Shown here piece by piece: positions 1,282-22,541 of a stretch of 32,000 nucleotides of DNA. Made by a program: the position numbers and the translations under genes. Origin of the DNA: Erysipelothrix inopinata. Its GTDB lineage: Bacteria > Bacillota_I > Bacilli_A > Erysipelotrichales > Erysipelotrichaceae. Location: positions 60,001 to 92,000 of the forward strand of contig NZ_CP060715.1 in NCBI RefSeq assembly GCF_014396165.1. The letters run 5' to 3'. The notes beneath the pieces are model-generated. The model was not told where the DNA came from, did no database searches, and saw nothing but the letters and a program-made list of their open reading frames with translations. Within the stretch, counting starts at the first letter, position 1. Each line of letters begins with the position of its first letter.

Positions 1282-1283
1282 TT

Positions 1284-2177
1284 TTACTGTTCCTTCATCT
1301 TTCGTCTTGGTAATTTCGTAGATAAATTATTAAGTACGATTGCTCCAACAAATATTATTACAGTCGCAAGTTTCATCATCTTAGGATCCATATTCATACG
1401 TATTGCGATCGCAATAATAAATCTATAGAGAATAGAACCCACGATTACCATAAATGTCATACTGCATTTTTTCTTCCTTAATAATAGGGTTCCTAAAATA
1501 ACTGATGCTAGACCCAGAACAACCATCCCTGTTCCCATGGAAATATCGAATGATTTTCCAACCGAAACTGCTACACCACCCGATAAGGCAACGATGCCAT
1601 TTGAAAGTGCCAATCCAAATATTTTCACTTTTCCAACATCATGACCCAATGATGCTACTAAATTTTCATTGTCTCCAGTTACTTTCAATAAGTAACCAAG
1701 ACGTGTTCTCAAGATGAAATCAATAAAAATTTTCACACCCACCACGAGGAGAACCATTACGATTAGTTGATAGTTATTTACAATAAACGATGGAGCATTC
1801 ATTGCCTCTAACCAATTTGTATCAAAGAGGTTTGCATATTTAAATAAAGCAATGTTTCCTTTACCACCAATAAGTAGATTTATTGAGTATAATCCCGTCA
1901 TTACCAAAATCCCACTTAACAATGCCGTTATCTTAAATTTAACATGGAAAATACCAGTCATCATTCCCGCTAAGACGCCTGCCAAGAGTGATGCAATTAA
2001 CGCAACCCAAGGATTGACACCTTGAATTATCAGTACTGCACTTACGACCGCACCTAATGGAAATGTTCCATCAACTGACAAATCGGGAATATCCAATATT
2101 TTATACGATAACATAACACCCATAGTCAGAATCCCATAGAGAAGACCCTGTATCAATACATCAATTGCAAATGCCAT
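1284..2177 (-). CDS. ABC transporter permease (COG4120-type, multi-pass membrane protein)
   Basis: A 297-aa highly hydrophobic protein. Its start overlaps the binding-protein stop (TAATG overlap at 2175-2179). The operon context is binding protein - permease - ATPase. Confidence 0.85.
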   Translation of the reverse strand: MAFAIDVLIQGLLYGILTMGVMLSYKILDIPDLSVDGTFPLGAVVSAVLIIQGVNPWVALIASLLAGVLAGMMTGIFHVKFKITALLSGILVMTGLYSINLLIGGKGNIALFKYANLFDTNWLEAMNAPSFIVNNYQLIVMVLLVVGVKIFIDFILRTRLGYLLKVTGDNENLVASLGHDVGKVKIFGLALSNGIVALSGGVAVSVGKSFDISMGTGMVVLGLASVILGTLLLRKKKCSMTFMVIVGSILYRFIIAIAIRMNMDPKMMKLATVIIFVGAIVLNNLSTKLPRRKMKEQ

Positions 2178-3130
2178 TATTCTTTCACCATAGCTCTTTC
2201 TAGTACAGAACCAGGAATTTCAATTCCCAATTCTGTTGCGATTTTTTGACTTACCATTAATTCAGTTGACGTTGCAGTCACAACTGGTAAATCCTTGATT
2301 TCTTTTTTATTTACAAGTATATCAACAATCATCTCACCAGCTTGTTTTCCTAAACTCATGTAGCTTACAGAATCACTCGCGAAGATTCCTTGATCAAATT
2401 GCCCTGATTCAGCCATAAATACAGGAATATTTGTTTTTAAACCCGCATCAACCACAAGCCCTGTCGAAGCAGCAACTGTGTTATCATTAACGATAAACAT
2501 TGCGTCAACATTTTGTGCAAGTTGCGAAACAGCCATTGGTAGCTCATTACTTTGAGAAATACCTTTTTCTACAATTTCTAATCCAAGTTCAGAAGCGAAC
2601 GCTTTGATATCTTTAACTTGGTTTGTACTATTGATTTCACCTGTATTGAATGGAATTCCAACCGTTTTCACGTTTGGCGTAATTTCATTAATAAGCTCGA
2701 ATTGTTTTTTAAGTGGTGGCATATCGCTCACACCCGTAACATTTCCTTCAGGCTGATTTACATTTTCTACAAGTCCCGCTTGCTTTGCATCTGATACTGC
2801 ACTGAATACAATGGGTATTCCAGTTCCCTCCGCTGCATTAACTGCAGCTTGTACCGACGGTGTTGCTACTGCAAATATTAAATCCACTTTGTCATTTACA
2901 AATTGCGATGCAATTTGTTGTGCTGTTGATACATCTTCATTTGCCGTTTTGATAACCACTTCAAAGTCGTCACGTTCCTTTAGTACCGAATTCATACCAT
3001 CAAATGAATCATTTAGCGCTGGATGATCTCCCCACTGAATGACACCCACTTTAAATTTTTCATTTCCTTTAGCTTGGCATCCCGCCAAAATAAACATTGT
3101 AAGTAAAACAATTAATATATTCTTTTTCAT
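2177..3130 (-). CDS. ABC transporter substrate-binding lipoprotein, paralog 1 (ABC_sub_bind / COG2984 family, usually annotated putative Trp/Tyr uptake)
   Basis: Lipoprotein signal MKKNILIVLLTMFILAGC. Shows clear paralogy with ORFs 3422-4360 and 7512-8468, sharing motifs KVGV.Q...H..L, IFA..T, NVTGVSD and PVF.AE.G. Confidence 0.85.
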   Translation of the reverse strand: MKKNILIVLLTMFILAGCQAKGNEKFKVGVIQWGDHPALNDSFDGMNSVLKERDDFEVVIKTANEDVSTAQQIASQFVNDKVDLIFAVATPSVQAAVNAAEGTGIPIVFSAVSDAKQAGLVENVNQPEGNVTGVSDMPPLKKQFELINEITPNVKTVGIPFNTGEINSTNQVKDIKAFASELGLEIVEKGISQSNELPMAVSQLAQNVDAMFIVNDNTVAASTGLVVDAGLKTNIPVFMAESGQFDQGIFASDSVSYMSLGKQAGEMIVDILVNKKEIKDLPVVTATSTELMVSQKIATELGIEIPGSVLERAMVKE

Positions 3131-3159
3131 AGTCTCTATCCTTCTCTTCTATATTCAAC

Positions 3160-5129: not shown

Positions 5130-5939
5130 TTACTCCTTTTCTGTAATTATATATCCTGCTTCAGTTATCCAATCATTCGCATTTTCACTTTGAGCTGGTG
5201 AGACAATCGGAATGTTAACCATAACTCCCGACAGTTCCAGTCCATGATGTTCTGCCCATCCAGCCAAAACTTCACACACCTGATTCATTTGATTATAGTC
5301 ACCCGCAAACACAGTGGATACCATTTTAAATGACGGTTCACATTGATATACGTCTTCACTCAGTCTCGACTTAGATATATCTATGGATATTTGAACTTCG
5401 ATATCTATTTGTTCTAATTTATATTCTTTATCATGATAAATTGTCATACACTGATACGGATCTGAAAATATAACGGAATTATCAGTTGTTTTTTCATAGA
5501 GCTCATCCCATAGAGATGCTTCACCGTAATAATCTGTAACATTTTTACGAACACTTATTACGTTTCTAGCTGGTATCTCTTTAACACTAACATGATACTT
5601 TTCAAAGGATTTCTTTTCGTAAGACATTGAATTCAACAATTGCAGTTTGGCTTCCATTTCTATGATATCTTCCTGCAACTTATTTCGCCGCGACTCAAGT
5701 TTATTTTCAACAAACCCTTGATCATGACTTGAACTAATTTCCTTTATTTCTGCCAAAGAGAAACCAACTTCTTGAAGAACCTTAATTCTATTTAAATCCT
5801 TTATCTGATGACTACTATAATATCGGTATCCTGTAAGTTCGTCATGCTTATAAGGTAAAAACAATCCTAGATCTTCATAATGATGAAGTGTTCGGATCGT
5901 CGTATTCGTAATTTTTGAGAAAGCACCAATCCGAAACAT
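5130..5939 (-). CDS. MerR-family transcriptional regulator with C-terminal GyrI-like effector domain (BmrR-like)
   Basis: N-terminal MerR HTH (FRIGAFSKITNTTIRTLHHYEDLGLF...GYRYY), a coiled-coil linker, and a C-terminal domain of about 150 aa that looks GyrI-like. Confidence 0.85.
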   Translation of the reverse strand: MFRIGAFSKITNTTIRTLHHYEDLGLFLPYKHDELTGYRYYSSHQIKDLNRIKVLQEVGFSLAEIKEISSSHDQGFVENKLESRRNKLQEDIIEMEAKLQLLNSMSYEKKSFEKYHVSVKEIPARNVISVRKNVTDYYGEASLWDELYEKTTDNSVIFSDPYQCMTIYHDKEYKLEQIDIEVQISIDISKSRLSEDVYQCEPSFKMVSTVFAGDYNQMNQVCEVLAGWAEHHGLELSGVMVNIPIVSPAQSENANDWITEAGYIITEKE

Positions 5940-5960
5940 AGACCACCTCGCTATATCTCT

Positions 5961-5991
5961 ATTATAATCTCTAACACTACGTGAGAGTCAA
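5961..5991 (-). promoter_or_regulatory. MerR-type promoter with a 19-bp spacer and an internal imperfect dyad
   Basis: On the minus strand: -35 TTGACT (5991-5986), 19-nt spacer CTCACGTAGTGTTAGAGAT, and -10 TATAAT (5966-5961). The spacer holds the dyad CTCTAACAC-TAC-GTGAGAG (plus-strand reading). Confidence 0.65.
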
Positions 5992-6002
5992 CACCCATCT
6001 CT

Positions 6003-6034
6003 AAAATAAAAAGGCGTCACATTTTGTGATCGCC
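6003..6034 (-). terminator. intrinsic terminator after the uracil permease gene
   Basis: The RNA is GGCGAUCACA-AAA-UGUGACGCC (9 bp with one bulged A) followed by UUUUUAUUUU. Confidence 0.8.
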
Positions 6035-6046
6035 CCTTGCTTATGA

Positions 6047-7342
6047 TTATTTTTTTACAATTAGGTTTAAAATTTGGTTGAGTAAAATTCCGATAATAGC
6101 TGCAAGGCTCATTCCTGACAATGCAACTCCGCTCATTATTTCCACACTTGCACCACCCAACCCAACTACAAGCATGCTTGATACGATAACAAGATTTTTC
6201 ATATCTGCAAGATCAGTATTATCTTTGATTAACACTTTGATTCCGTTTGAAGCAATCAATCCGTATAGGATGATTGTCATTCCCCCAATTACAGCCCAAG
6301 GGATACTTGCTATAAATGCTTGAATCCACCCTAAGAATCCAAGGCAAATCGCAATTACTGCTGCAAGTCCTATTACCCAAACCGAACCTACTCCAGTCAT
6401 TGCAATAACGCCAGTGTTTTCTCCATAGGTAGTATTTGCCGGTCCACCCAATGCAGCCGACACGAAGGTCGCAATCCCATCACCTAATAGTGTTCTATTA
6501 AGTCCTGGATCTTCAAGAAAATCGTTTCCTGTAATTTCACCCAGAACAATATGGTCACCAATGTGTTCCGCAATCGTAACAAGTGCAAGTGGTGCAAAGG
6601 CGATGACAGTTCCAAAATCAAGCTTGTATGTTCCTAACACTTGAAAATTTGGAATTTGAAAGAAACTATAACCGTCAAGAACATGTTTAATATCAACAAG
6701 CCCTGTAAGAACTGCAGTAATGTAACCTACTAAAATAGCAATTAGGAATGGAATTACTTGAATAAACCCTTTTCCTTTAAGCGATACAAGAACTACTGTT
6801 GAGAATGTTACGAGTGCAACAAGTGGCACTTTCCATTCTGCACCCACAACACCTAAATATTTCCCTTGTTCAACAAGGGGTTGGATTCCTCTTAATCCTG
6901 ATTCTACCACCGCATTGGGTGCAAGTGATAATCCAATAATCACAATCATCGGTCCAATGACTACCGGAGGAAGAAGTTTCTTAATCCATCCACTTCCTGT
7001 AAACGAAATAATAATAGCAATTAATACATAGATAAATCCAACAACCATCAGTCCAGTATAAGCACTTTCTGGTCCACCTGTTGCCATGATTGCTGCGGAA
7101 ATACTTGAAATATATGCAAAGCTACTTCCTAAATAAACGGGAGCTTTTGCTTTAGTACAAAGAATATAAATTAATGTTCCTATCCCACTACATACTAAGG
7201 CAACCCCAATATCTAATCCTGTCAATATCGGAACAAGAACTGTTGCTCCAAACATTGCAAATACATGTTGAAAACTTAAAACTAACCATTCAAGTTTTGA
7301 TTTTGGTTTCTCATGAATACCAATACGTAACCCATTCTCCAT
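6047..7342 (-). CDS. pyrP: uracil permease (NCS2 / uracil-xanthine permease family)
   Basis: A 431-aa protein of about 12 TM segments. The N-terminal motif SFQHVFAMFGATVLVP...SGIGTLIY...PVYLGSSFAYI is typical of PyrP/UraA. Confidence 0.85.
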   Translation of the reverse strand: MENGLRIGIHEKPKSKLEWLVLSFQHVFAMFGATVLVPILTGLDIGVALVCSGIGTLIYILCTKAKAPVYLGSSFAYISSISAAIMATGGPESAYTGLMVVGFIYVLIAIIISFTGSGWIKKLLPPVVIGPMIVIIGLSLAPNAVVESGLRGIQPLVEQGKYLGVVGAEWKVPLVALVTFSTVVLVSLKGKGFIQVIPFLIAILVGYITAVLTGLVDIKHVLDGYSFFQIPNFQVLGTYKLDFGTVIAFAPLALVTIAEHIGDHIVLGEITGNDFLEDPGLNRTLLGDGIATFVSAALGGPANTTYGENTGVIAMTGVGSVWVIGLAAVIAICLGFLGWIQAFIASIPWAVIGGMTIILYGLIASNGIKVLIKDNTDLADMKNLVIVSSMLVVGLGGASVEIMSGVALSGMSLAAIIGILLNQILNLIVKK

Positions 7343-8757: not shown

Positions 8758-10509
8758 ATGTATACTTGGTCTTTAGATGAACTCTATAAAGGATACGATG
8801 AATCCTTCGATACAGATGTAAAAAAAGTATCAGAAATTATCACATCACTTAATCAACAAGCACTTAACTTAAACAACAAAGAAGATTTAATTGCTTTTAT
8901 GAAACTGGATATTGAATTCAACAATCTTGCTCAATCACTCGTTAGCTTCGTAAGCTTAAATTTAGCTACCAATGCTACCGATACCATTAGCAATCAAAAA
9001 TATAGTCAATTGATGCCTATGTTTAACGAGGCTACTAAAGCATATGCTTATTTTAAAAAGTTCTTAGCAGAGAATAAAGATAACTTTGATGAATGGGTTC
9101 TCGAAGATGACTTCCTTAAAGAACATGAATTCATTCTTCGTGAAATCATCAGTAACAGTCAATATAACCTAAATGAGGATGTGGAAGACGTTATTGCAAA
9201 AATGAAACTTAACGCATCCTCTAACTGGTCAAAATTACAAGGATACCTTGGATCAATGGCTACCATTGAATATGATGGTAAAACTCATACTCTTTCCTCA
9301 ATTCGTAATCTTGCCTATTCACATGATGCGAAAACACGTAAAGAAGCATACGAAAAAGAACTCGAACTTTATACTAAGATTGAAGATGCCATTGCATTTG
9401 CATTGAATAGTATTAAAGGAGAAGTTAATACTCTTTCTGCACTTCGTGGATATGAAAACGCTCTTGAACAAACACTTATCGCATCACGTATGTCAAAAGA
9501 AACATTGGATGCATTGATGGGAGCAATCGAGTCATACCTTCCTACATTTAGAAAATACCTTAACCATAAGGCTGAACTTCTTGGACACACCAACGGACTT
9601 CCTTGGTATGATCTTTTCGCACCATTTGAAACAAGCAATCCTAAAGAATATACAGTTGAAGATTCTCGCGAGTTCATTTTAGATAGTTTTGGACACTTCT
9701 CAGATGACTTGCAAGAAATGGCACGTAAAGCCTACGATGATCGTTGGATTGATTTCTTACCTCGTGAGGGAAAACGTGATGGAGCATTCTGTTCAAATCA
9801 ACCACAAATCAAACAAAGCCGTGTTCTTGCAAACTTTGATGGTTCAATTTCTGATATCGTTACGATAGCTCATGAATTAGGACACGCATACCACGGAATG
9901 ATGATTGAGGACTTATCAATCTTAAATACAAACTATACAATGCCTGTTGCAGAAACTGCATCAACATTCTGTGAAAATATCGTCTTCAATGCTGCTCTTA
10001 AAACTGCAAGTGATGAAGAAAAACTTGTCTTAATTGAAAACTCAATTTCTGACTTAACTCAAATCACGGTTGATATCATGTCACGCTACAAGTTTGAAAG
10101 CGAAGTCTTTGAGAGACGTCAAACTGAGTTCTTATTTGCAGCTGATTTAAAAGAAATCATGTTGCAAGCACAACGTGATACATACGGTGAAGGCTTAGAT
10201 CCTGAATTCTTACATCCTTATATGTGGGCTTGCAAGGGTCACTACTATAGTGGTGGACTCAGTTACTATAACTTCCCTTATGCATTTGGTGGTTTATTCG
10301 CGCTTGGTCTTTATGCACAATTCGAAAATGAAGGGGCATCATTTGTCCCTAAATATCAAGCACTTCTCAAAGCTACAACAACCGCATCTTGTGAAGATGT
10401 AGCCATGATGGCTGGAATTGATGTTACTCAAGAAGCATTCTGGAAATCAAGTCTCGATGTTGTTGCAAAACGAATCGACGATTTCATTGCATTAACACCT
10501 ATTAAATAA
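8758..10509 (+). CDS. pepF: M3-family oligoendopeptidase F
   Basis: A 583-aa protein with zinc motif HELGHAYH and overall PepF-like architecture. RBS AAGGAGA is upstream. Confidence 0.85.
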   Translation: MYTWSLDELYKGYDESFDTDVKKVSEIITSLNQQALNLNNKEDLIAFMKLDIEFNNLAQSLVSFVSLNLATNATDTISNQKYSQLMPMFNEATKAYAYFKKFLAENKDNFDEWVLEDDFLKEHEFILREIISNSQYNLNEDVEDVIAKMKLNASSNWSKLQGYLGSMATIEYDGKTHTLSSIRNLAYSHDAKTRKEAYEKELELYTKIEDAIAFALNSIKGEVNTLSALRGYENALEQTLIASRMSKETLDALMGAIESYLPTFRKYLNHKAELLGHTNGLPWYDLFAPFETSNPKEYTVEDSREFILDSFGHFSDDLQEMARKAYDDRWIDFLPREGKRDGAFCSNQPQIKQSRVLANFDGSISDIVTIAHELGHAYHGMMIEDLSILNTNYTMPVAETASTFCENIVFNAALKTASDEEKLVLIENSISDLTQITVDIMSRYKFESEVFERRQTEFLFAADLKEIMLQAQRDTYGEGLDPEFLHPYMWACKGHYYSGGLSYYNFPYAFGGLFALGLYAQFENEGASFVPKYQALLKATTTASCEDVAMMAGIDVTQEAFWKSSLDVVAKRIDDFIALTPIK

Positions 10510-12060: not shown

Positions 12061-14340
12061 TTATTGCATTGATTTTTTCTTACGACTATAAAGGACAAGA
12101 ATTGATCCCATCACAACTAGTCCACCCACCATAAACATTGAGGTGGATGATACACCTGTTCCCGGTAGTTTGCCTTCTGGGTTCACTTCTGGATCTGGTT
12201 TTACCTCTGGATCAGGTTTCACTTCTGGATCTGGTTTTACCTCTGGGTCTGTAGGAGTATCTGCTTCAACATTAACTACCACATTACCTTCGAATATTTC
12301 ATCAGTAACTGAAGAGGATACTTTAATATTTACTGTGTACTCTCCTACTTTACTCAAATCAACTTTTTGGGAAAAGTCTGTCGTAATGATTGTTTCATGA
12401 TTTGAAACTATTTTTACAAGTTCTAGTAATTCTGTTTCAGTCAAACCACTGTTTAGTTTTACCTTGATTGATTTCTCTGTCAAAGTAACACTTAGAGGTT
12501 CTATAACTTCAGCTTTCACTCCTGTTGTTTCAACATAAGCCTTATCAAGAACAGTAATTGCATATGCTGCATTCACATCTTCTAAGTCATAAATATTATT
12601 TTTACCTGCTTCAAAGTTTACACGATCTACAATGTTACCTGCCGCAATTATTTCTTCTACAGTTTGACTTGGAGTTCCTTTGTAGATGACATAGAAACGT
12701 GCATTATTGTTTAAAGCATCCGTCCATACAAGTTTGCCATCTTTAATTGAAGCAGATTGCAATGGACTTGTATCTTTCGGTGATAAACGTTTATGGCTTG
12801 GTGTTAGTGAAGGTTTACTGAATGAATCAGATTTTAGAATATCGATACTGTCATTTTTAGCTATATTTCTTGGACGTAAAGCTTCATCTAAAGAATCAAT
12901 ATCTGATTTCACAATATCAGCATAACTATAGATTGAGCTACCGGATATGTTTTTTAATTTTTGATTGAATTTCATTTGATTATTTATTTCATCAGGATTC
13001 ATCCAATCAGCATCCCAACCACCATTACTTGTATGTTTGTAGTTAGCATGTCCAACATATAATTTAACATCAGTTCCCTCAACAACTGAATCCCACCAAC
13101 GCGCAATTTCTCCATATGGCGCAGCAGGTGCTGAGAATGACCAATAAATCTGTGGCGAAATATAATCTAGTTTTCCATCTTTAATCCATTGGTATGTATC
13201 AGCAAAGATTGTTTTTGAATAACTTTGAGATGATCCTGCTGGAGTATTTGATCCACGAGGATCATTTGCTTTGTGTTCCCAAATTCCGAATGGGCTAATT
13301 CCAAATTGAACTGCCGATTTCGTAGTTTGGTTATGTGTTTTTAAAACATCATTCACAGCATCTACAAGCTTGGTGACATTATCACGACGCCATGCTTCAA
13401 TACCTGCAGGAGTATCATCAAATTCACCTTTATACTTCAAGAATGTTTCTCGATCTTCTTCGAAAGTGCCAAACACATCTGACCCTGGAATATCTTTTCC
13501 TTCTGGATCTTTACGAAGTGCACCCTTGTAAGGATAGAAGTAGTCATCATAATGAACAGCATCAATATCATACTTTGTTACGACTTCTTTAACGGTATCA
13601 GCCACATGTTTAATAACTTCCGGTTCACCAGGATTTAAAAAGAGTTTCCCTTGGAATTTTAATACTAAATGTGGATTCTTGACTGCAAAGTTATCATTTG
13701 ATAAATGTCCAAGTTTATTTAAAGCTTCAACTTGTTCTGCAGGGGTGAAGTTCTTAACTTCTTCTGCGGTATATCCAAGTGCTACGACTTGCGATAAGAT
13801 AGCTGGTGCATCAATATCAGAGTTTGTAACACGGTAAGGATTAAACCATGCGTGGAATTCCATTCCACGATCATGAGTTGCTTTTACCATGTATTCAAGT
13901 GGATCATAATTAACGTCTTGACCTTGTTTACCACTTAAAAATTGTGATGTAGGATTTAATTCAGATGGATAGAATGCATCAAGTAGAGGACTTACTTGGA
14001 ATATCACGGCATTCATATTCCATGATTCCATTTGATCCAAACGTTCTTCATATTTATTGATAAACTCTTCTTCAGTATTCACCTGTGGAAAGTGGAGGTT
14101 GAAGATTGTAGCAATCCAAGATGATTTGAATTGCACTCTTTCCTGAACATAGGTGTTAGGAATCTTAACACGTTCATCAGATCCCCCATAGAGATAAACA
14201 GGTTTACTTTCATCGTAACCATAGGTTCCATCGGCATTCTTTACATACCGATTCAATTCTGTTTCCCCCTCATCCGCACTGACGGCTGTTGTTGCAAAAA
14301 ACATCAATACACTTAAAACTGCAATGAACAATTTTTTCAT
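12061..14340 (-). CDS. LPXTG cell-wall-anchored glycoside-hydrolase-like family 10 (GHL10/DUF187, YngK-like) protein
   Basis: Signal peptide MKKLFIAVLSVLMFFATTAVSA. The catalytic-domain-like region (SWIATIFNLHFP ... NAVIFQVSP ... HAWFNPYR) resembles GHL10. The C-terminus carries PEVKPD repeats, then LPGTG, a hydrophobic helix and RKKK. Confidence 0.75.
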   Translation of the reverse strand: MKKLFIAVLSVLMFFATTAVSADEGETELNRYVKNADGTYGYDESKPVYLYGGSDERVKIPNTYVQERVQFKSSWIATIFNLHFPQVNTEEEFINKYEERLDQMESWNMNAVIFQVSPLLDAFYPSELNPTSQFLSGKQGQDVNYDPLEYMVKATHDRGMEFHAWFNPYRVTNSDIDAPAILSQVVALGYTAEEVKNFTPAEQVEALNKLGHLSNDNFAVKNPHLVLKFQGKLFLNPGEPEVIKHVADTVKEVVTKYDIDAVHYDDYFYPYKGALRKDPEGKDIPGSDVFGTFEEDRETFLKYKGEFDDTPAGIEAWRRDNVTKLVDAVNDVLKTHNQTTKSAVQFGISPFGIWEHKANDPRGSNTPAGSSQSYSKTIFADTYQWIKDGKLDYISPQIYWSFSAPAAPYGEIARWWDSVVEGTDVKLYVGHANYKHTSNGGWDADWMNPDEINNQMKFNQKLKNISGSSIYSYADIVKSDIDSLDEALRPRNIAKNDSIDILKSDSFSKPSLTPSHKRLSPKDTSPLQSASIKDGKLVWTDALNNNARFYVIYKGTPSQTVEEIIAAGNIVDRVNFEAGKNNIYDLEDVNAAYAITVLDKAYVETTGVKAEVIEPLSVTLTEKSIKVKLNSGLTETELLELVKIVSNHETIITTDFSQKVDLSKVGEYTVNIKVSSSVTDEIFEGNVVVNVEADTPTDPEVKPDPEVKPDPEVKPDPEVNPEGKLPGTGVSSTSMFMVGGLVVMGSILVLYSRKKKSMQ
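12179..12250 (-). repeat. 4 x 18-bp tandem repeat encoding (D)PEVKP linker units
   Basis: The plus strand reads GGGTTCACTTCTGGATCT / GGTTTTACCTCTGGATCA / GGTTTCACTTCTGGATCT / GGTTTTACCTCTGGGTCT. Confidence 0.9.
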
Positions 14341-14536
14341 GCTCTCCTCCTGTTAGCGTTTACAAGTCACATTATACTGGAGTGAAATTAAATTTCAAGT
14401 ATTAATTATTAACTTTGTAATAATATTGTGTAACCGATATCATCAATGCACACTTAAACCTTGGTAAAATCGTAATTAAATCATCAGAATTTTTTTATTA
14501 CATAAATCATCGGATCATCACCTCTTTGGTTTGTCT

Positions 14537-14569
14537 TGTAACATCCCTGTAACATGTTTCTTTTAAAAT
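14537..14569 (+). promoter_or_regulatory. direct-repeat response-regulator box plus -10 (promoter of the phosphoesterase-RR-HK operon)
   Basis: TGTAACAT (14537-14544) and TGTAACAT (14548-14555) are phased at 11 bp. Ten nt separate the second TGTAAC from -10 TAAAAT (14564-14569). Confidence 0.6.
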
Positions 14570-14597
14570 ACTCATGAAACTAAAAAGGAAGATTTTT

Positions 14598-15446
14598 ATG
14601 AAAAAATATAAAACACTTAAATTCGTAGTTATATCTCTGTTAATTTTAATTGTCGTAAATACAATTTATGCATTTAAAGTTGAACCCTATAGTATAAACA
14701 TTGAATGGAATCTTATTAAACCAGAAGGAGAAGTAACAGAAACACTTAAAGTAGTTCATTTCTCTGATATCCATCTAAAAGAGGATTTTAATAAAGTGCC
14801 ACTCGATAATATCGTTCATAAAATAAACAACCAGCAAGCTGATATCGTAGTTTTTACTGGTGACTTATATGATAACTATGCAAAATACAACAGTGATGAT
14901 ATGATTATTTCATACTTAAAACAGATTAAATCAAAGTATGGCAATTTTGCTGTTTGGGGGAATCACGACTATGGTGGAGGTTCTTCACGACACTATGATT
15001 ATGTTATGAAGGAAGCTGGTTTTAGGCTTTTACGTAATGAAGAAGTGATGATTAAAACAGAAAGCAATAAATCAATCTTAATCTACGGATTGGATGACAG
15101 TATGTTGGGAAAACCACATACCAAATCTTTAACAAGAACCGATGAATCGGATTTCATAATAATGTTGAGTCACGAACCAGATACTGTAGATAGGTTTATC
15201 AATGAAGATTTCAACTTATTTCTAAGCGGACACAGTCATGGTGGTCAAATTAATATTCCATGGATTCCTGCTCTCAATAAGTTTGCAGTTAATCAAACAA
15301 ATCTTGCTGAAAAATACACCAAGGGGTCTTATGATCTCACCAACTCAAAATCAATTTTTGTAAATGTTGGGATTGGAACAAGCCATGTACCGATGCGGTT
15401 TGGTGTTCATCCCAAAATCACAGTTCATAAAATTTTCTTAAAATAA
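14598..15446 (+). CDS. membrane-anchored metallophosphoesterase (YkuE-like)
   Basis: Start moved to the ATG at 14598, which follows RBS AAGGAAG. The track start at 14574 sits 5 nt after the -10 box. Motifs present: HFSDIH, GDLYD, GNHD and GHSHGGQ, plus an N-terminal TM helix. Confidence 0.85.
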   Translation: MKKYKTLKFVVISLLILIVVNTIYAFKVEPYSINIEWNLIKPEGEVTETLKVVHFSDIHLKEDFNKVPLDNIVHKINNQQADIVVFTGDLYDNYAKYNSDDMIISYLKQIKSKYGNFAVWGNHDYGGGSSRHYDYVMKEAGFRLLRNEEVMIKTESNKSILIYGLDDSMLGKPHTKSLTRTDESDFIIMLSHEPDTVDRFINEDFNLFLSGHSHGGQINIPWIPALNKFAVNQTNLAEKYTKGSYDLTNSKSIFVNVGIGTSHVPMRFGVHPKITVHKIFLK

Positions 15447-15455
15447 GGAGGCCTC

Positions 15456-16106
15456 ATGAAAATACTTGTCGTTGAAGATGATATTAAAATCAATGAAATT
15501 TTAAAAATGTATCTTGAACATGAAGGTTATACCGTAACCAGTGTTTTTAATGGCGATGATGCTCTTTCTTACTTTGATAAGGATACTGCAGATCTGGTTC
15601 TTTTAGACTGGATGCTGCCCAAAAAAAGTGGAATTGAAGTATGCAAAGCACTAAGGTTCATGGATGTTCCTACCAAGATAATTATGCTAACAGCAAAGGA
15701 TACTCCAGAAAGTGAACTCCTTGGGCTAACTAGCGGTGCAGACGACTATATTCGCAAACCCTTCGACATACAGATTGTCCTCTTAAGAATTAAGAAGCTT
15801 CTCAATTTCGAGAAAACTTTAAGATATAAAGATATATCCTTGAACACGCAAACAGGTGAAGTATATAGAAACAAGATGTTACTTACCCTTACACTTCGCG
15901 AATACAAACTGCTTGAATACTTAATGATGAATCAAAACGTTATTCTGACACGAGATCAAATTATTAGTAATGTTTGGGGCATCGATTATGACGGTGAAAT
16001 GCGAACTATTGACACCCACATCCGACGACTCAGGGCTAAAATTGGTGATGACACCATCAAAACTAAAATTGGCCTTGGATATGTGATGGGAGATCTTTAT
16101 GAGTAA
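15456..16106 (+). CDS. OmpR/PhoB-family response regulator
   Basis: Receiver domain (MKILVVEDD ... DLVLLDWMLP ... LTAK) followed by a winged-helix trans_reg_C domain (LTLREYKLLEYL ... IDTHIRRLRAKI). RBS AGGAGG is upstream. Confidence 0.92.
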   Translation: MKILVVEDDIKINEILKMYLEHEGYTVTSVFNGDDALSYFDKDTADLVLLDWMLPKKSGIEVCKALRFMDVPTKIIMLTAKDTPESELLGLTSGADDYIRKPFDIQIVLLRIKKLLNFEKTLRYKDISLNTQTGEVYRNKMLLTLTLREYKLLEYLMMNQNVILTRDQIISNVWGIDYDGEMRTIDTHIRRLRAKIGDDTIKTKIGLGYVMGDLYE

Positions 16107-17484
16107 ATTATCAAAAAAACTTATGATTGTAGTGATCTCCATACTTATAATTTCCACAACACTTACAACTATACTAAATATATCTTTTTCTAAAAAATAT
16201 TATTTGCATCAGAAACGCAAAGAAATCACTGAGATTAGTGATTCGTTCATTACGATGCTTGATCATGGCGAATCTGAGGAAAAGGCCATCACTACTATTG
16301 AAGAGGCAAATAAAGTAATCATTGCTGAAGTTCAGTTTGATCATGATACTGAAGAAGAAACCATCAACCAAAATATACAACAAGCTTTTACAGAAAAAGG
16401 TATTGGTTTTCAAAGGTATTGGCTTTGGGATCAAGATTTCGAACTATTAACGCAAGGAGAACGCCAACTTAGACTCTACAATCAAGAAAAGTTAAATTAT
16501 AGTCTACTCATAAATTATGTTCCCGTCGGAAACTCAATTTTCGCAATTACCACAATCGTACCAAATATCGAAGATGCTTTTATGATTTCGAGTGGACTCT
16601 TGATGGTTATCAATATACTCATGACATTTGTAGCACTCCTATTGATTAGCCTATTTATCCGTGACATTACGAAACCACTAAAACTTTTTGAACTGTTTGC
16701 ACAATCACTCGAAGATGGAAGTTACGAACCTATTGAAATCCACACTAACGACGAACTCGAACAAGTTGCAAACAGCCTTAATTCAATGGGAGAAAAACTA
16801 ACAGAATCGAATAATGCTCTATCAAATAAAAACAAACAAATGGCAGATCTTCTCGAAGATGTAACACACGAACTCAAAACTCCTATTTCATTAATAAGAC
16901 TTTATACACAAGGTATTAAAGACGGTATTGATGACGGATCATTTCTTGATACCATTTCTGATGCAAATGACCAAATGGCTAAAGATATTGACCGCTTACT
17001 CTTGATGTCTAAGATTGATAGAGACGAAATTGTGTTGTCTTCTATAAATATTTCTACACAACTTGAGGAAAACATCAATAAGGTAAAAATTATGAATTCC
17101 CAAAGTCAGCTTGAATTTAAACAAAATATCGAGGATAACGTCTACATTAAGAGCCATAAAGATTCTCTTGATACAATTCTACTAAATCTCATTACGAATG
17201 CTGTCAAGTATGGAACTGGGGAGTTTATTGATATTCTGTTAAATACCCAAAACGATGGGGTCCATTTTGTGATCAGCAATCAATTTCAAAATGATAATCT
17301 CGATTTGAATAAAATAACACAGCCTTATTATGTTGGAGAAGCTTCAAGAAATAAAGAACTCTCTGGAACAGGTTTAGGACTTTCCCTTGTCTCAAAGATG
17401 TGTGAAACATTTGGATATTCGTTTAAATATTGGACTCATAATAATCAAATTTACTTCGAAATTGTTATACCACATGTCACATAA
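16099..17484 (+). CDS. sensor histidine kinase with two TM helices and an extracytoplasmic loop of about 130 aa
   Basis: H-box THELKTPIS, N-box LITNAVKYG and G-box GTGLGLS are present. The start overlaps the RR stop (ATGAGTAA). Confidence 0.9.
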   Translation: MSKLSKKLMIVVISILIISTTLTTILNISFSKKYYLHQKRKEITEISDSFITMLDHGESEEKAITTIEEANKVIIAEVQFDHDTEEETINQNIQQAFTEKGIGFQRYWLWDQDFELLTQGERQLRLYNQEKLNYSLLINYVPVGNSIFAITTIVPNIEDAFMISSGLLMVINILMTFVALLLISLFIRDITKPLKLFELFAQSLEDGSYEPIEIHTNDELEQVANSLNSMGEKLTESNNALSNKNKQMADLLEDVTHELKTPISLIRLYTQGIKDGIDDGSFLDTISDANDQMAKDIDRLLLMSKIDRDEIVLSSINISTQLEENINKVKIMNSQSQLEFKQNIEDNVYIKSHKDSLDTILLNLITNAVKYGTGEFIDILLNTQNDGVHFVISNQFQNDNLDLNKITQPYYVGEASRNKELSGTGLGLSLVSKMCETFGYSFKYWTHNNQIYFEIVIPHVT

Positions 17485-17502
17485 TATAAATCATTTCCTA
17501 AC

Positions 17503-17547
17503 AAAAAAAAGATTAACGCCACTTTAGAAATGGGTTAATCTTTTTTT
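17503..17547. terminator. bidirectional terminator between convergent HK and phosphatase genes
   Basis: An A8 run, then AGATTAAC ... GTTAATCT, then a T7 run. Confidence 0.75.
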
Positions 17548-17550
17548 ACG

Positions 17551-18321
17551 TTAAACAATAGGATTTACGTATAACATTCTTAATTTTTCAATATCTGTTT
17601 CATTAAGACCCAGACCCTCGGTTATGTAATTATTAAAATCACCGTATCTTTCTTCAATTGCTAAAAAAGCTTCATCAAGATACGTTTTGTCTACGGTCAT
17701 ATAACCGCGAATATTATCGATTTGCGCATCCGTTAAATTTTCTTCGATTTGAATCTCTTTAAGACGTTTTTCAACATAATCATGGGTCAAAGTGTTCGTA
17801 AGTAAATAATCTTCATAGATTACTTCATCACTTGCTCCCAGAATTTTCAAGATTTGAACTGCTGCAAATCCTGTTCTATCTTTTCCCGCTGTACAGTGAT
17901 AATAGAGTGATCCTTCTCTTTTTTCTAATAGGACATCGAAGAATCTTCGATATTCATCGCGACAAGCGTCACTCATGATAAACATCCGGTTCAAGCCGCG
18001 CATATGTTCTTGGGATACTTCACGTTTAAATCCTTTCATCATTTCGTTAGGATCAGCATTTTCTCGAGCTTTCGACATGATATCAATATGAATTGATTCA
18101 ACCCCTGGTATTACATCATCTGGTGCTTTTTTAATTTCTTCATCAGTGCGCAAATCTACAACTGTTTGAAGATGGTAATCACTAATAAGTTGATCTAACG
18201 TTCTTTCACTTAAATTATCCAAAACACCACCACGTAATAGTTTATGAGGTTTTATTGTTCCACCAGAAACTTCAATACCTCCCATATCTCTAAAATTTCG
18301 TATCGAATTCATATTTGACAT
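17551..18321 (-). CDS. protein-tyrosine phosphatase (Y_phosphatase3-like)
   Basis: A 256-aa protein with the CX5R active-site loop HCTAGKDRTG. Confidence 0.8.
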   Translation of the reverse strand: MSNMNSIRNFRDMGGIEVSGGTIKPHKLLRGGVLDNLSERTLDQLISDYHLQTVVDLRTDEEIKKAPDDVIPGVESIHIDIMSKARENADPNEMMKGFKREVSQEHMRGLNRMFIMSDACRDEYRRFFDVLLEKREGSLYYHCTAGKDRTGFAAVQILKILGASDEVIYEDYLLTNTLTHDYVEKRLKEIQIEENLTDAQIDNIRGYMTVDKTYLDEAFLAIEERYGDFNNYITEGLGLNETDIEKLRMLYVNPIV

Positions 18322-18378
18322 CCTCTTTCTATAATTAATACATTAAACAAATTATAGCATAATAAATCTTCTGACATT

Positions 18379-18411
18379 CTGTAACATCGCTGTAACACTA
18401 CTAAACTAGAA
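18379..18411 (+). promoter_or_regulatory. second copy of the TGTAACA direct-repeat box plus -10 (promoter of the dehydratase-murG operon)
   Basis: TGTAACAT (18379-18386) and TGTAACAC (18390-18397) are phased at 11 bp. Ten nt separate the second TGTAAC from -10 TAGAAT (18406-18411). The geometry is identical to 14537-14569. Confidence 0.6.
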
Positions 18412-18460
18412 TTGAAATATACAAAAATGAGAACATATGTTTTCTTAGCAAGGAGTATTT

Positions 18461-19429
18461 ATGAAAAATAAAGTTGTATTAATTATTGGTGGAACTGGTT
18501 CTTGGGGTGATGGCCTCATCACAGAACTTTTGAAAGAAGATATATTAAAAATCAAAGTATTTGCTCGAAACGAATTTCAAATGGTAATGTTAATGAGAAA
18601 ATATAACAATCCCAAAATTGAAATCATCATCGGCGATATTAGAGACTACAATGCATTAGAAATTGCATGTGAGAATGTAGATATCGTTTACCATCTTGCA
18701 GCACTGAAACATGTACCAATCTGTGAACAACTACCCGATGAAGCTATCGAAACAAATATCTTTGGAACACAAAACGTTATTGATGCGTCAATAGCAAATG
18801 ATGTTGATAAAGTTATCTTTACTTCTACAGATAAAGCAGTGAACCCAAACTGTACCTATGGAAGTACTAAAATGCTGGGTGAAAAACTTATTCTATCAGC
18901 GAATAATCGTAACAGCAGAACGAAATTTATTGTATTTCGAGGCGGAAACCTCATAGGAAGTACCGGAAGCGTCATTCCTCTATTTGAGGATCAGATCCTT
19001 GAAAAAGGGTCCATTTCACTAACAGATGAAAATATGAATCGTTTTTTCATATCGGTTCACTCAGCTTCACAACTCCTCATAAAGATTTCTAAAAGAGGCA
19101 TCGGTGGAGAAATCTATATCCCTAACATGCCTTCGATATTCATCCGAGATATTGCGAAATATATATTAAATAAATGGAATATTAATCCCGATAAGATTGA
19201 ACTTATTGGAAAACGACCTGGAGAAAAAATAAGTGAAGTTCTTGTGGCAGAAAATGAAAGAAAAAGTTTATATCGTTTCGATGAATCTTTATTCATTATT
19301 TGTAATGATCAACATGGTTGGTTAGCAAACGGAGTTATTCAATATGTTGATGAATTTGATGAAAACTCCGCTGTAAACCAATTGTCCTACAGTCAAGTCG
19401 TAACATTTCTGAAAAGTGCCGGAGTCTAA
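18461..19429 (+). CDS. short-chain NAD-dependent sugar-nucleotide 4,6-dehydratase, PseB/FlaA1/CapD-like (Polysacc_synt_2 family)
   Basis: Contains a GGTGSWG Rossmann motif and TDKAVNPNCTYGSTK, which covers the catalytic Tyr/Lys region. Its size of about 322 aa matches the PseB class. Confidence 0.75.
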   Translation: MKNKVVLIIGGTGSWGDGLITELLKEDILKIKVFARNEFQMVMLMRKYNNPKIEIIIGDIRDYNALEIACENVDIVYHLAALKHVPICEQLPDEAIETNIFGTQNVIDASIANDVDKVIFTSTDKAVNPNCTYGSTKMLGEKLILSANNRNSRTKFIVFRGGNLIGSTGSVIPLFEDQILEKGSISLTDENMNRFFISVHSASQLLIKISKRGIGGEIYIPNMPSIFIRDIAKYILNKWNINPDKIELIGKRPGEKISEVLVAENERKSLYRFDESLFIICNDQHGWLANGVIQYVDEFDENSAVNQLSYSQVVTFLKSAGV

Positions 19430-19430
19430 A

Positions 19431-20729
19431 ATGAAATATTTATTCACCGGTGGAGGAACTGCTGGACATGCAATGGTAAATACAGTTCTTATAACTAAAT
19501 TATTGGATTCAGATGTCGAAATTATATATATTGGTTCGAAAAATGGTATTGAAAAGGAAATGTTAAAAAAATATAAATCTGTAAAATACCATGGTGTATC
19601 AACTGGAAAACTTCGTAGATATTTCTCAATGAAAAATGTTACTGATATTTTTAGAATAATTTATGGTTTTTTCACTGCTCTCAAACTTCTCTACAAAGAA
19701 AAACCAGATCTCATCTATTCAAGTGGAGGATATGTTTCGGTTCCTGTAGTTTGGGCTGGATTTTTACTTCGTATCCCCATTGTTATTCGAGAAACTGATT
19801 ACACAGTAGGTCTTGCGAATAAGTTGAGTCTCCCTTTTGCGGATAAAATCTATCTAACATTTCCGGATACACAGCAATACATCACAACTCGACACAACCT
19901 TACACAATCCACTATCATAAGGCCTGAACTTTTTGAAACTGAAACAATAATCTTTAGTAGGAAGAAGCCACTATGTCTTGTCATGGGTGGAAGTAGTGGT
20001 GCAAATGCTATCAATAACTTTATATGGGATAATCTTACTAATTTAAAAGATCAGTACGATATTATTCATATTACTGGAAAAAACAAGTCAAATAAAAATG
20101 TTGCTGATACGAATGACTACATTCAATACGAGTATATCGAAGATATGAGCTCGATGTATAATATCGCAGACGTAATCATCACAAGAAGTGGCTCAAACGC
20201 AATTATAGAAGGCCTTCTTCTCGGAAAGAGAATGGTGTGTATTCCTTTATCAAACTCAATATCAAGAGGTGAACAGATTGCAAACGCAAATTTTGCTGTA
20301 TCACATGGAACTGCGATAATACTTCCTGATAATTTTTCACTCACAAACTTTCGGGAAGCGATAAATTCTGTAATCAATATGTCTATAAATACTGAGTATA
20401 TCAGCACTAAAGGTGAATTAGAACGTGAAATATCAGAACATATTTCTGATATAAACCAAATATCCAAAATAAAAATCAAGAAGGAAACAAATTATATGAA
20501 CAAAAAAATTGCTTCCATAGCTACGCTATTCATTGTTATGGGATTTGGGGCACACATATATCGATTAAGGCTGCCTGAAATGATAGATGAATCCGGAATG
20601 ATTATCAGCGATAATCTTGGTTGGATTGTAATTGGTATACTACTCATTCTCATTGGTTCTCTTATGCTGATATCTAATATTTTGTATCATCAAATTGCTA
20701 TAAAACAAAAAAAGGGTTCTAATTTATAG
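19431..20729 (+). CDS. murG: MurG-type GT28 glycosyltransferase fused in frame to a 77-aa two-TM module
   Basis: Start moved to the ATG at 19431 (MKYLFTGGGTAGH), which follows GGAG. The N-terminal roughly 355 aa follow the streptococcal MurG pattern (GGGTxGH, STGKLRRYFS, GGYVSVP, GLANK). Residues from the ATG at 20496 onward are paralogous to ORF 28477-28689. Confidence 0.75.
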   Translation: MKYLFTGGGTAGHAMVNTVLITKLLDSDVEIIYIGSKNGIEKEMLKKYKSVKYHGVSTGKLRRYFSMKNVTDIFRIIYGFFTALKLLYKEKPDLIYSSGGYVSVPVVWAGFLLRIPIVIRETDYTVGLANKLSLPFADKIYLTFPDTQQYITTRHNLTQSTIIRPELFETETIIFSRKKPLCLVMGGSSGANAINNFIWDNLTNLKDQYDIIHITGKNKSNKNVADTNDYIQYEYIEDMSSMYNIADVIITRSGSNAIIEGLLLGKRMVCIPLSNSISRGEQIANANFAVSHGTAIILPDNFSLTNFREAINSVINMSINTEYISTKGELEREISEHISDINQISKIKIKKETNYMNKKIASIATLFIVMGFGAHIYRLRLPEMIDESGMIISDNLGWIVIGILLILIGSLMLISNILYHQIAIKQKKGSNL

Positions 20730-20748
20730 AAGCCCTTCTTTAATTTAA

Positions 20749-22518
20749 TTAATCTTGGAATACAGGAATTATTTTCTTCAAGTTTACATCAACCATTCCG
20801 AGATCTGACATTTTCATTTGGGGAATAACGATTAATGCTAAAGTACAAATACGTAGCACAGGATTAAGTAGTTCTTCCATTCCTAGACCAAGATTAACTT
20901 GGTAGAGTGCTTTACTTTCTTTAGCTACGGTTTTCGCATCATGGTGTGACATCAATCCACAAACTGGAAGTGCCATCGTTCCTATGACCTCGCCATCAAG
21001 TACCGTCGCGAAACCACCACCGATTTCACGAAGTTTATTTACAGCTACAACAGCATCCTTTGGATCGTTATAGACTAATGTAATGTTATGAGAGTCATGT
21101 GAGACAGTTGTAGATAAACATCCTTTATTATTTCCGAAACCCTTCACAATCGCAATTGAAATCGTATCATTATTAGGATGACGGTTTACAATTGAAGTAA
21201 ACATCATTCCTTCTTTAAGAATTACTTCTCCATCAACAACCTCGAGTGTATCTGAAGATAGTTTGGTGAGTGACCCTTTTGGACTTAAATATTCGATAAA
21301 GTTGACAGTAACTTCACCATTTTGGATTGGTGCTTTAAGTGTCAAATCTTCAGGCTTTAAGTCTTTTACAAACACTGTGTTTCGACTTTCGAGTTCATGT
21401 GTTCTTGGCTCAATAGGAGCCACCAGTTTTTGATCTTTCGCTACTAATTTCCCTTCAAAGAAAACATGACTTGGTCGAATATTTTTCAAATCATCAACGA
21501 GTAAAAAGTCTGCGAGATAACCTGGAGCAATGGCACCAATATTTTCTAAATGTGCTTCGCGAGCACTGTTGAATGTTGCACTTCGAATCGCATCACGCGG
21601 ATCCATTCCAGCTTGAATTGCGACATTCACGACATCATTCATATGTCCCACGCGTAAAATATGCTCCGCTTCACGATCATCAGTACATAAACAAAATGTA
21701 TCGTGATAGCGATTATTTTGAATTGCTTCCCAAATATCGACGACGTTTGTTGACATAGAACTTTCACGTGCATCAACATACAATCCTTGACGAAGTTTCT
21801 CGACTGCTTCACTACCATGACGTGATTCATGACATGTTTTTGGACCTCCTGCAATATATGCAGAAAGAAGACGTCCTGAAGCCATGGGTGCGTGACCTTG
21901 AATATATAAGTTATTCTTCTTTGCTACTTCGAGAATATCGAGAAGATGCTCTTCACCATCAGCGACACCCACAAAATCCATCACTTCTGCAAGTCCAATA
22001 ACACGTTCAAGTTTTGAAAGCTCATCAATTTCTGGTGCTAAAAATTCTGCTCCAGCATTTTCCAATCCATGAACCGATGGAACACAAGAAGGAATATCAA
22101 TTAACTGACGCATTGGTAGATTTTCTGCAATATCATGCATGTAAGTGACACCTTCAACACCAACAACATTCGCTACTTCGTGAGGATCTGTAATACTTGT
22201 AGTTGTTCCCCATGCAGCTGCAATTTCCGCAAAGTTTTGTGGTGTTAACATTGTACTTTCCACATGCATATGCGCATCAATAAGGCCTGGAATACAATAA
22301 TTACCATGACCATCAACAATATCACCTGTAACTTTATCCAATTCTTTAAGTTCGTAGTCAACATGAGCAATACTATCTTTATATACGTAAATATTTGCTG
22401 GTAAAATTTCACCTGTAAATACATTAAATACATTCACATTTGTCAGTACCCAGTCGCAAGGAATAACACCCCTCGCAGCTTGTATTAATTCTTTAACTTC
22501 TACTTGTTTTAATTTCAT
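20749..22518 (-). CDS. ade: adenine deaminase
   Basis: Start moved to the ATG at 22518 (MKLKQVEVKEL), which follows RBS GAGGAG. Amidohydrolase motif GLIDAHMHVESTMLTP is present, and the length of about 589 aa fits. Confidence 0.85.
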   Translation of the reverse strand: MKLKQVEVKELIQAARGVIPCDWVLTNVNVFNVFTGEILPANIYVYKDSIAHVDYELKELDKVTGDIVDGHGNYCIPGLIDAHMHVESTMLTPQNFAEIAAAWGTTTSITDPHEVANVVGVEGVTYMHDIAENLPMRQLIDIPSCVPSVHGLENAGAEFLAPEIDELSKLERVIGLAEVMDFVGVADGEEHLLDILEVAKKNNLYIQGHAPMASGRLLSAYIAGGPKTCHESRHGSEAVEKLRQGLYVDARESSMSTNVVDIWEAIQNNRYHDTFCLCTDDREAEHILRVGHMNDVVNVAIQAGMDPRDAIRSATFNSAREAHLENIGAIAPGYLADFLLVDDLKNIRPSHVFFEGKLVAKDQKLVAPIEPRTHELESRNTVFVKDLKPEDLTLKAPIQNGEVTVNFIEYLSPKGSLTKLSSDTLEVVDGEVILKEGMMFTSIVNRHPNNDTISIAIVKGFGNNKGCLSTTVSHDSHNITLVYNDPKDAVVAVNKLREIGGGFATVLDGEVIGTMALPVCGLMSHHDAKTVAKESKALYQVNLGLGMEELLNPVLRICTLALIVIPQMKMSDLGMVDVNLKKIIPVFQD

Positions 22519-22541
22519 TTCATGTCTCCTCATCACAAATT

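Follow-up and report, generated by a model that had tools for sequence, protein, structure and literature searches.

Tandem TGTAACA boxes in Erysipelothrix inopinata as candidate operators of a PhoB-like response regulator

Here, we describe two tandem TGTAACA boxes in a 32,000-nucleotide stretch of the genome of Erysipelothrix inopinata (assembly GCF_014396165.1, contig NZ_CP060715.1, positions 60,001 to 92,000 of the forward strand), hereafter called the window, in whose coordinates positions are given. Box 1 precedes an operon for a metallophosphoesterase, an OmpR/PhoB-family response regulator and a sensor histidine kinase, and box 2 precedes an operon for a PseB-like sugar dehydratase and a MurG-like glycosyltransferase. 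The sequence and promoter geometry of the boxes, their recurrence at related loci and the analogy to the Escherichia coli pho box make it likely that both are operators of the regulator encoded at 15456-16106, which would activate its own operon and the dehydratase/MurG-like operon in the manner of PhoB.

Two tandem boxes with the same promoter geometry

The sequence TGTAACA-N4-TGTAACA occurs in exactly two copies in the 32-kb window. The boxes, their promoters and the genes of the two operons are as follows.

14537-14554, plus strand: box 1, TGTAACATCCCTGTAACA (TGTAACA-tccc-TGTAACA), proposed regulator operator in the promoter of the two-component operon
14564-14569, plus strand: -10 hexamer TAAAAT of the box-1 promoter, which has no -35 hexamer
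18380-18397, plus strand: box 2, TGTAACATCGCTGTAACA (TGTAACA-tcgc-TGTAACA), proposed operator in the promoter of the dehydratase/MurG-like operon
18407-18412, plus strand: -10 hexamer TAGAAT of the box-2 promoter, which has no -35 hexamer
14598-15446, plus strand: membrane-anchored metallophosphoesterase (YaeI/LpxG-like; Pfam Metallophos), first gene of the two-component operon
15456-16106, plus strand: OmpR/PhoB-family response regulator, 216 amino acids (aa), with Response_reg and Trans_reg_C domains
16099-17484, plus strand: sensor histidine kinase, 461 aa, with a transmembrane segment, an extracytoplasmic domain of about 135 aa, a second transmembrane segment, and HAMP, HisKA and HATPase domains
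18461-19429, plus strand: PseB/CapD-like 4,6-dehydratase of UDP-N-acetylhexosamine (UDP-HexNAc), 322 aa (Polysacc_synt_2, PF02719, E = 7e-85)
19431-20729, plus strand: MurG-family glycosyltransferase of family 28 (GT28), 432 aa from ATG 19431 (PF03033 and PF04101)

At both sites, the heptamer starts are separated by 11 bp, and the gap from the second TGTAAC to the -10-like hexamer is exactly 10 nt, or 9 nt when counted from the end of the 18-mer. A preliminary description of this DNA had reported the 11-bp phasing, the 10-nt distance to TAAAAT and TAGAAT and a start of the first site at 14537, all of which were confirmed; for the second site the repeat and its geometry were borne out as well, with the start displaced by one position, from 18379 to 18380. 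Taking the -10 hexamer as -12 to -7, each box extends from about -39 to -22, and the whole box thus overlaps or replaces the -35 element. The preliminary description had placed the second TGTAAC in the -35 region; it is the entire 18-bp box rather than the second repeat alone that occupies this region. At both window promoters, the best match to TTGACA at a spacing of 16-18 bp was 1/6.

The signal resides in the exact tandem arrangement and not in the word itself, since neither the single heptamer TGTAACA (8 observed versus 6.0 expected) nor the loose pattern TGTWAH-N5-TGTWAH with one mismatch allowed (17 versus 13.4) was enriched in the window. The base composition of the window predicts 0.00078 exact boxes over both strands, corresponding to a probability of 3e-7 for two or more, and the observed box count was equalled in 0/100 dinucleotide-preserving shuffles. 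As previously noted, the arrangement was found nowhere else in the window: with up to two mismatches, the only additional matches were reverse-strand echoes of boxes 1 and 2, explained by the nearly palindromic nature of TGTAACA, and a scan with the position weight matrix of the family described below revealed no third box. A third in-phase half-site was absent from the window boxes. Among the relatives, such a half-site was seen in locus L089 only (9913-9941), where TGTGATA comes after the box of the regulator promoter and overlaps the -10 hexamer there.

Two other types of site were considered and dropped. SigX-type promoters have the form TGTAAC-N17-CGAC, and promoters of an extracytoplasmic function (ECF) sigma factor were rejected because no CGxC was present 16-17 nt past the first TGTAAC at either site. 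LytTR-type sites consist of 9-bp repeats with 12-bp spacers; they were rejected because the adjacent regulator carries a Trans_reg_C and not a LytTR domain. An Rfam scan of 14000-21000 detected no RNA element, its sole match being a chance NrrF (E = 0.65).

The box accompanies a family of regulator-kinase operons

Related loci, labeled with L numbers, were gathered through searches with the regulator, the kinase or the MurG-like protein. Among the matches listed by a search of genome contigs with the regulator alignment, most were paralogues from unrelated phyla; L001-L005 were used, and the rest served as control sequence. Regulator homologues at 50-64% identity are abundant in gut metagenomes, and the cultured species named among them were Enterocloster bolteae and Hungatella.

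The family motif was derived from 28 independent boxes, whose associated regulators and kinases are 43-64% and 29-46% identical, respectively. Its consensus is TGT[A17/C11]A[C/A]A-N4-TG[T/a][A/C]A[C]A, with A or C at position 4 of the half-site (C in 24/56, T in 0/56). In all 28 boxes, the heptamer starts are 11 bp apart and the box is oriented like the downstream gene. TAnnnT is located at offset 9 after the 18-mer in 27/28, the 28th having CATAAT, and other offsets account for no more than three sites each. The best match to a -35 hexamer did not exceed 3/6 in any of the 28 promoters, and column counts of the first 18 compiled sites gave no sign of an extended -10 TG. Outside the two heptamers and the -10 hexamer, only a short T-rich run 5' of the box is conserved; spacers and flanks are variable.

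A strict pattern (box, 9 nt, [T/C]AnnnT) yielded 49 matches in 0.52 Mb of family loci compared to 3 in 1.43 Mb of control loci, which were unrelated or paralogous. Among metagenome loci that had a full-length kinase match and were fetched after the matrix had been built, 10/13 contained boxes (L092-94, L096-99, L101, L103 and L104), several of these being near-duplicates of one lineage; two of the three loci lacking a box are short or truncated contigs.

At the same distance to the -10 hexamer, about 14 independent lineages have the box ahead of their orthologous regulator-kinase operon (L081/82, L083/84, L085/86, L087/88, L089, L090, L091, L092, L093, L096/97, L101/103, L002, L004 and L005). 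A counterpart of box 1 at the orthologous position was found in L081/82, L083/84, L085/86, L087/88, L092 and L096. The first gene of the operon encodes the phosphoesterase in many lineages, and in others the regulator and kinase genes stand alone. The Peptostreptococcaceae genome L005, with a 43% identical regulator, has the box before this operon, and in Lysinibacillus sphaericus OT4b.31 (L004) the box precedes an operon that opens with a glucosaminidase gene. The comparison of the motif in orthologous loci proposed in the preliminary description thus revealed conservation of both box and geometry, and the suggestion made there that the adjacent regulator autoregulates its own operon gains comparative support from these lineages.

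The dehydratase/MurG-like operon is a boxed cassette

A boxed dehydratase/MurG-like operon was found near a two-component operon of this family in five further lineages (L089, L090, L091, L175/176 and L177/178), in four of which it directly follows the kinase gene or the (disrupted) operon. In L089 (GCA_964454685.1), L090 and L091, the regulator and kinase genes are directly followed by a Polysacc_synt_2 dehydratase gene and a GT28 MurG-like gene, preceded by a second box of the same geometry at 12090, 7346 and 2295, respectively.

Searches starting from the MurG-like protein led to the same association. Its nearest homologues (P0127 and P0128, 55% identical) are encoded in operons composed of LytR_cpsA_psr (LCP), dehydratase and MurG-like genes. 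In L177/178, such an operon is located directly after a phosphoesterase-regulator-kinase operon, and genes for an integrase and an IS91-type transposase were observed after it. In L176, a DDE transposase cuts the regulator gene, and in L175 the distance between the LCP-dehydratase-MurG-like operon and the two-component operon is roughly 10 kb, as deduced from flanking genes common with L083. The operon box of L175-L178, TGTCACATCG[C/T]TGTAACAC, has the TCGC spacer and the downstream CTACTAA in common with box 2, and the flanks have diverged. The two-component family and the dehydratase/MurG-like genes are thus linked in six lineages, and the link was reached both from the regulator and from the MurG-like protein. 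The boxed operons in the five further lineages lend comparative support to the earlier proposal that the regulator would also control the PseB-like/MurG operon.

Comparison with close relatives indicates that box 2 and the operon behind it form a presence/absence cassette (18369-20735), comprising box 2, the promoter and the dehydratase and MurG-like genes. L081, whose regulator is 95% identical, is devoid of the dehydratase and MurG-like genes as well as of box 2; between its phosphatase and adenine deaminase genes, about 175 unrelated bp (12855-13030) take the place of window positions 18369-20735. In another close relative, L172, the cassette is present (737-3153) with a box identical to box 2.

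The regulator and its cognate kinase

The regulator has a receiver domain (PF00072, E = 1.6e-25) and a winged-helix Trans_reg_C domain (PF00486, E = 2.7e-23), and D51, an invariant Asp in regulator alignment A1, is the putative phospho-acceptor. It did not reach the cutoff of any NCBIfam equivalog model: the best score was 181 bits for PhoB (TIGR02154, cutoff 296), and YycF scored 158 bits (cutoff 340). The best PDB match was RegX3, and the PhoB DNA-binding-domain entries 3t72 and 1gxp also matched. The recognition helix of the regulator, RTIDTHIRRLRAKIG, resembles that of PhoB (RTVDVHIRRLRKAL).

The kinase gene overlaps the regulator gene by 8 nt. The kinase likewise stayed far below the equivalog cutoffs of WalK (107 bits, cutoff 725), PhoR (86, cutoff 334) and PnpS (92, cutoff 400), and Pfam detected no PAS domain in it. 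Among 1.84 billion representatives, its sensor domain (window 16186-16590, about residues 30-165) defines a small family of 84 clusters at 50% identity. Family members conserve the domain well, and Y35, E68, K100, G101, W108, Y127, Q129 and Y134 are invariant. This domain had no Pfam match even at E = 10, and a word-indexed protein search with it alone gave no matches. A single-sequence AlphaFold model of mediocre quality (predicted local distance difference test score of 66) suggests a mixed alpha/beta fold, and Foldseek found no match to this model at E <= 0.001.

For the metallophosphoesterase, NCBIfam matches to YaeI and LpxG were below cutoff. We moved its start to ATG 14598 on the grounds of a AAAGGAAG ribosome-binding site at this position, of orthologues with 280-287 aa, and of the location of ATG 14574 only 5 nt past the -10 hexamer.

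A model of PhoB-style activation

We propose that the cognate kinase phosphorylates the regulator, which would then dimerize head-to-tail on the two 7-bp half-sites 11 bp, or one helical turn, apart. The box at about -39 to -22 would stand in for the missing -35 hexamer, and the bound dimer would recruit housekeeping sigma-A RNA polymerase to the -10 hexamer 10 bp downstream. Through box 1 this would bring about positive autoregulation of the phosphoesterase-regulator-kinase operon, and through box 2 induction of the PseB-like dehydratase/MurG-like cassette. The latter may be one of several interchangeable target modules, which elsewhere in the family would include a GH129-like protein, the LCP-dehydratase-MurG-like operon and an MBOAT/DHHW operon. 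We infer binding by this regulator, activation rather than repression and a cell-surface glycan function of the targets from comparison and by analogy.

PhoB-style activation, which in E. coli is of class II and proceeds through region 4 of sigma-70, is likely because the boxes match the E. coli pho box in geometry. In a pho box, direct repeats stand 10 bp ahead of the -10 consensus TAN3T/A (PMC1906773), and the spacing at promoters activated by PhoB is strictly constrained (PMC10294691). As in the E. coli system, the two half-sites are 7-bp direct repeats of the TGTCA/TGTAA type, follow each other with an 11-bp period and carry an A at position 7; the box is placed 10 bp upstream of TAnnnT in promoters without a -35 element, with strict spacing and with a regulator of the same family. 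Unlike E. coli PhoB/PhoR, the proteins fall far below the respective cutoffs, and the kinase, which lacks a PAS domain, carries an extracytoplasmic sensor domain. Moreover, in contrast to the E. coli Pho system, phosphate-transport genes are not linked here, the targets are glycan- or wall-active and the hosts are Clostridia and Bacilli.

Several observations weigh against assigning both boxes to this regulator. The loci had been picked by regulator, kinase or MurG-like searches, and box association was therefore measured against the control loci only. The Hungatella-like locus L174 and the Enterocloster-like locus L173 are without a strong box before the regulator gene, and autoregulation is thus not universal in the family. 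A sigma-70-like promoter, TTGACA-18-TACATT, is located just upstream of box 2 at 18315-18344 on the plus strand, overlapping the start of the phosphatase gene; it may be fortuitous, or it may let transcripts run into the dehydratase operon independently of the box. Furthermore, the window boxes are similar to in vivo binding sites of E. coli PhoB, among them TGTCACATCGATGTAATC and TGTAACCCGTATGTAACA, and both match the refined Streptococcus mutans VicR consensus TGTWAHA-N4-TGTWAHA (PMC4168254). Since the boxes fit both the WalR/VicR and the pho-box consensus, cross-recognition is possible, and WalR or the true Pho regulator of this organism could bind them as well or instead.

In one alternative, the boxes would be sites of the essential regulator WalR/VicR (YycF) instead of the adjacent regulator, and both operons would be part of the WalRK cell-wall regulon. 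We regard this as improbable, even though the window boxes match TGTWAH-N5-TGTWAH exactly and have the 11-bp period, and the target genes are cell wall related. Across the family, position 4 of the half-site is A or C and never T, and the C in 24/56 half-sites breaks W = A/T; moreover, the box goes with this regulator family, many lineages having it at the promoter of the regulator itself. VicR sites vary in strand and in position relative to promoters (PMC4168254), whereas the boxes described here adhere to one orientation and one offset, and the scores given above separate both proteins from the YycF and WalK equivalogs.

It is quite improbable that the adjacent regulator binds the boxes as a promoter-occluding repressor, mediating negative autoregulation and target repression. 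Overlap of a box with the core promoter, as from -39 to -22, is common for repressor sites, and OmpR-family regulators can repress depending on site location (PMC10294691). However, promoters that are devoid of a usable -35 element in all 28 cases and of an extended -10 TG in the first 18 sites should be weak without an activator, leaving little to repress, and the invariant offset to the -10 hexamer is a hallmark of PhoB-type activation.

Very improbable, in our assessment, is that the system represents the phosphate-starvation Pho system of this organism, with true pho boxes, a scavenging phosphoesterase and a wall operon replacing phosphate-rich polymers. In sequence and in its 10-bp spacing to the -10 hexamer, the box agrees with the E. 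coli pho box, PhoB is the best NCBIfam model of the regulator, homologues are labeled "PhoP" by JGI, and the operon opens with a phosphoesterase gene. Against this stand the PhoB, PhoR and PnpS scores well below cutoff, the kinase without a PAS domain, and the absence of pst, phoU and alkaline phosphatase genes nearby in about 20 independent family loci with gene calls or open reading frame lists. The sole linked gene of a phosphate type encodes the uncharacterized metallophosphoesterase, and the boxed targets are glycan- or wall-active proteins.

Finally, although the single TGTAACA word is unenriched and -10-like hexamers are common in the AT-rich window, a chance resemblance or a remnant of local duplication without regulatory meaning has a negligible probability, considering the value of about 3e-7 for two exact boxes, the flanks of boxes 1 and 2, which are unrelated to each other and thus speak against duplication, and the conservation of box and geometry, and not of the surrounding sequence, across Clostridia families and in a Bacillus relative.

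Searching the literature for the motif together with two-component terms returned WalR/VicR, PhoB and unrelated systems only; no paper on this regulator family, its operator or its regulon was found, and both the family and its targets seem to be undescribed.

Boxed targets and their possible functions

The family assignment of the dehydratase to Polysacc_synt_2 is secure, and its score for PseB (TIGR03589, 266 bits) did not reach the cutoff of 408. Both GT28 domains are well recognized in the MurG-like protein (N-terminal PF03033, E = 1.6e-30; C-terminal PF04101, E = 1e-25), and its scores of 311 bits for PRK12446 (cutoff 339) and 204 bits for TIGR01133 (cutoff 250) stayed below both curated cutoffs. 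It is 44% identical to Bacillus-type PRK12446 "MurG" proteins and retains the G-loop motifs GGGTAGH, GGYVSVP and GGSSGA together with the donor-site motifs. The paralogue family differs from Bacillus-type PRK12446 MurG in having RETD instead of HESD and SRGEQ instead of SRGDQ. The window protein has a C-terminal extension of 80 aa (20476-20729), which is absent from homologues of 350-390 aa and, judged from its translation, contains two hydrophobic and probably transmembrane stretches. Its gene lies outside the dcw cluster, in an accessory cassette flanked by the phosphatase and adenine deaminase genes.

Accessory murG-like genes have been reported in other settings. In Kitasatospora, MglA can replace MurG as an alternative lipid II synthase (PMC8092295), and van operons of Actinobacteria carry murG-like genes (PMC8698665). 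Like VanRS-associated van operons and MglA, the operon described here includes a MurG paralogue outside dcw that is tied to a two-component system or wall stress. Unlike these, it belongs to another phylum, lacks vanHAX and pairs the paralogue with a PseB-like dehydratase, and with an LCP ligase in relatives; the paralogue itself is closest to the Bacillus-type PRK12446 MurG group, with the RETD/SRGEQ signature of its own.

Since the MurG paralogue is paired with a sugar 4,6-dehydratase, and in relatives with an LCP ligase as well, it is tempting to speculate on a modified undecaprenyl-linked wall glycan. In a detailed version, which we put forward as a rather unlikely scenario, the kinase would detect a damaged cell-surface glycan layer, or a ligand of that layer, and induce an alternative lipid-linked glycosylation. 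The dehydratase would make a 6-deoxy/4-keto UDP-HexNAc, the membrane-tethered MurG paralogue would add this sugar to a wall precursor linked to undecaprenyl, either lipid I or a linkage unit, and the LCP ligase of the relatives would attach the product to peptidoglycan. If true, this would give rise to an inducible, chemically altered wall glycan, which might guard against lysozyme-like enzymes, lipid II-binding antibiotics or phages.

The commonest boxed target in the family is a secreted protein of 650-870 aa similar to glycoside hydrolase family 129 (GH129-like, GH101-related), whose gene adjoins the kinase gene. Enzymes of GH129 and GH101 act on mucin-type O-glycans. Boxes of GH129-like genes are located at L001 9029, L003 9199, L005 9033, L093 2654, L096 7476, L104 7522, L173 12092 (E. 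bolteae-like) and L174 13692; the Hungatella-like loci with such a boxed gene are L094/98/99/L174. In L005, an MBOAT/DHHW acyltransferase operon is boxed as well, and a further box lies at the locus end. The window contains no GH129-like gene; in its place a divergent gene for a GHL10-like LPXTG protein with a promoter of its own is present. The range of boxed targets suggests that the regulon is modular and concerned with cell-surface glycans. The preliminary description had proposed an envelope-remodeling regulon, which remains plausible but is too narrow given that a secreted GH129-like protein is the commonest boxed target, and a possible reading beside envelope remodeling is the sensing of external, e.g., host, glycans.

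Implications for related genomes

A two-component family of gut Clostridia that is apparently uncharacterized hereby gains a precise predicted operator, TGT[A/C]A[C/A]A-N4-TGT[A/C]A[C/A]A followed, after 9 nt, by TAnnnT. Orthologues are present in Hungatella, in Enterocloster bolteae and in a Peptostreptococcaceae genome, and Lysinibacillus has a relative. A set of targets becomes predictable from sequence alone. Rather than serving in housekeeping, accessory MurG paralogues that are paired with a sugar dehydratase, and sometimes with an LCP ligase, may be inducible. It is also possible that target operons travel as operator-bearing cassettes, a simple route for regulon growth: with the operator on the cassette itself, a two-component system already present could gain regulon members by horizontal transfer. 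The proposed regulatory logic, PhoB-type activation with autoregulation, is textbook, and the value of these findings thus lies in annotation and in guiding experiments and not in a new principle.

Neighboring genes

Three further genes of the window flank the two operons; their annotations rest on Pfam/NCBIfam.

12061-14340, minus strand: GHL10-like LPXTG surface protein
17551-18321, minus strand: Y_phosphatase3 protein (tyrosine phosphatase)
20749-22536, minus strand: adenine deaminase

The GHL10-like LPXTG gene was considered as a target of box 1 and rejected, since it has a near-consensus promoter of its own, TTGAAA-16-TATAAT (14398-14371), without a box.

Possible control of the divergent tyrosine phosphatase gene, raised in the preliminary description, found no support. 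This gene has its own extended -10 promoter, TGcTATAAT, on the minus strand (18359-18351), which is kept as TGaTATAAT in L081, where this locus has no box; the phosphatase is thus not a conserved member of the regulon. Box 2 is located at about -36 to -53 of the phosphatase promoter in opposite orientation, and regulator bound there could influence the phosphatase in this strain.

Genes related to peptidoglycan were observed beside the family operons at several loci. L001 encodes a protein with both an LprI lysozyme-inhibitor and a DUF3298 domain (5670-6968), and the glucosaminidase gene that opens the operon in Lysinibacillus (L004, 6350-6988) belongs to GH73. In L085, genes for a D-Ala-D-Ala carboxypeptidase and a transpeptidase-domain protein (12097-14956) adjoin the family operon.

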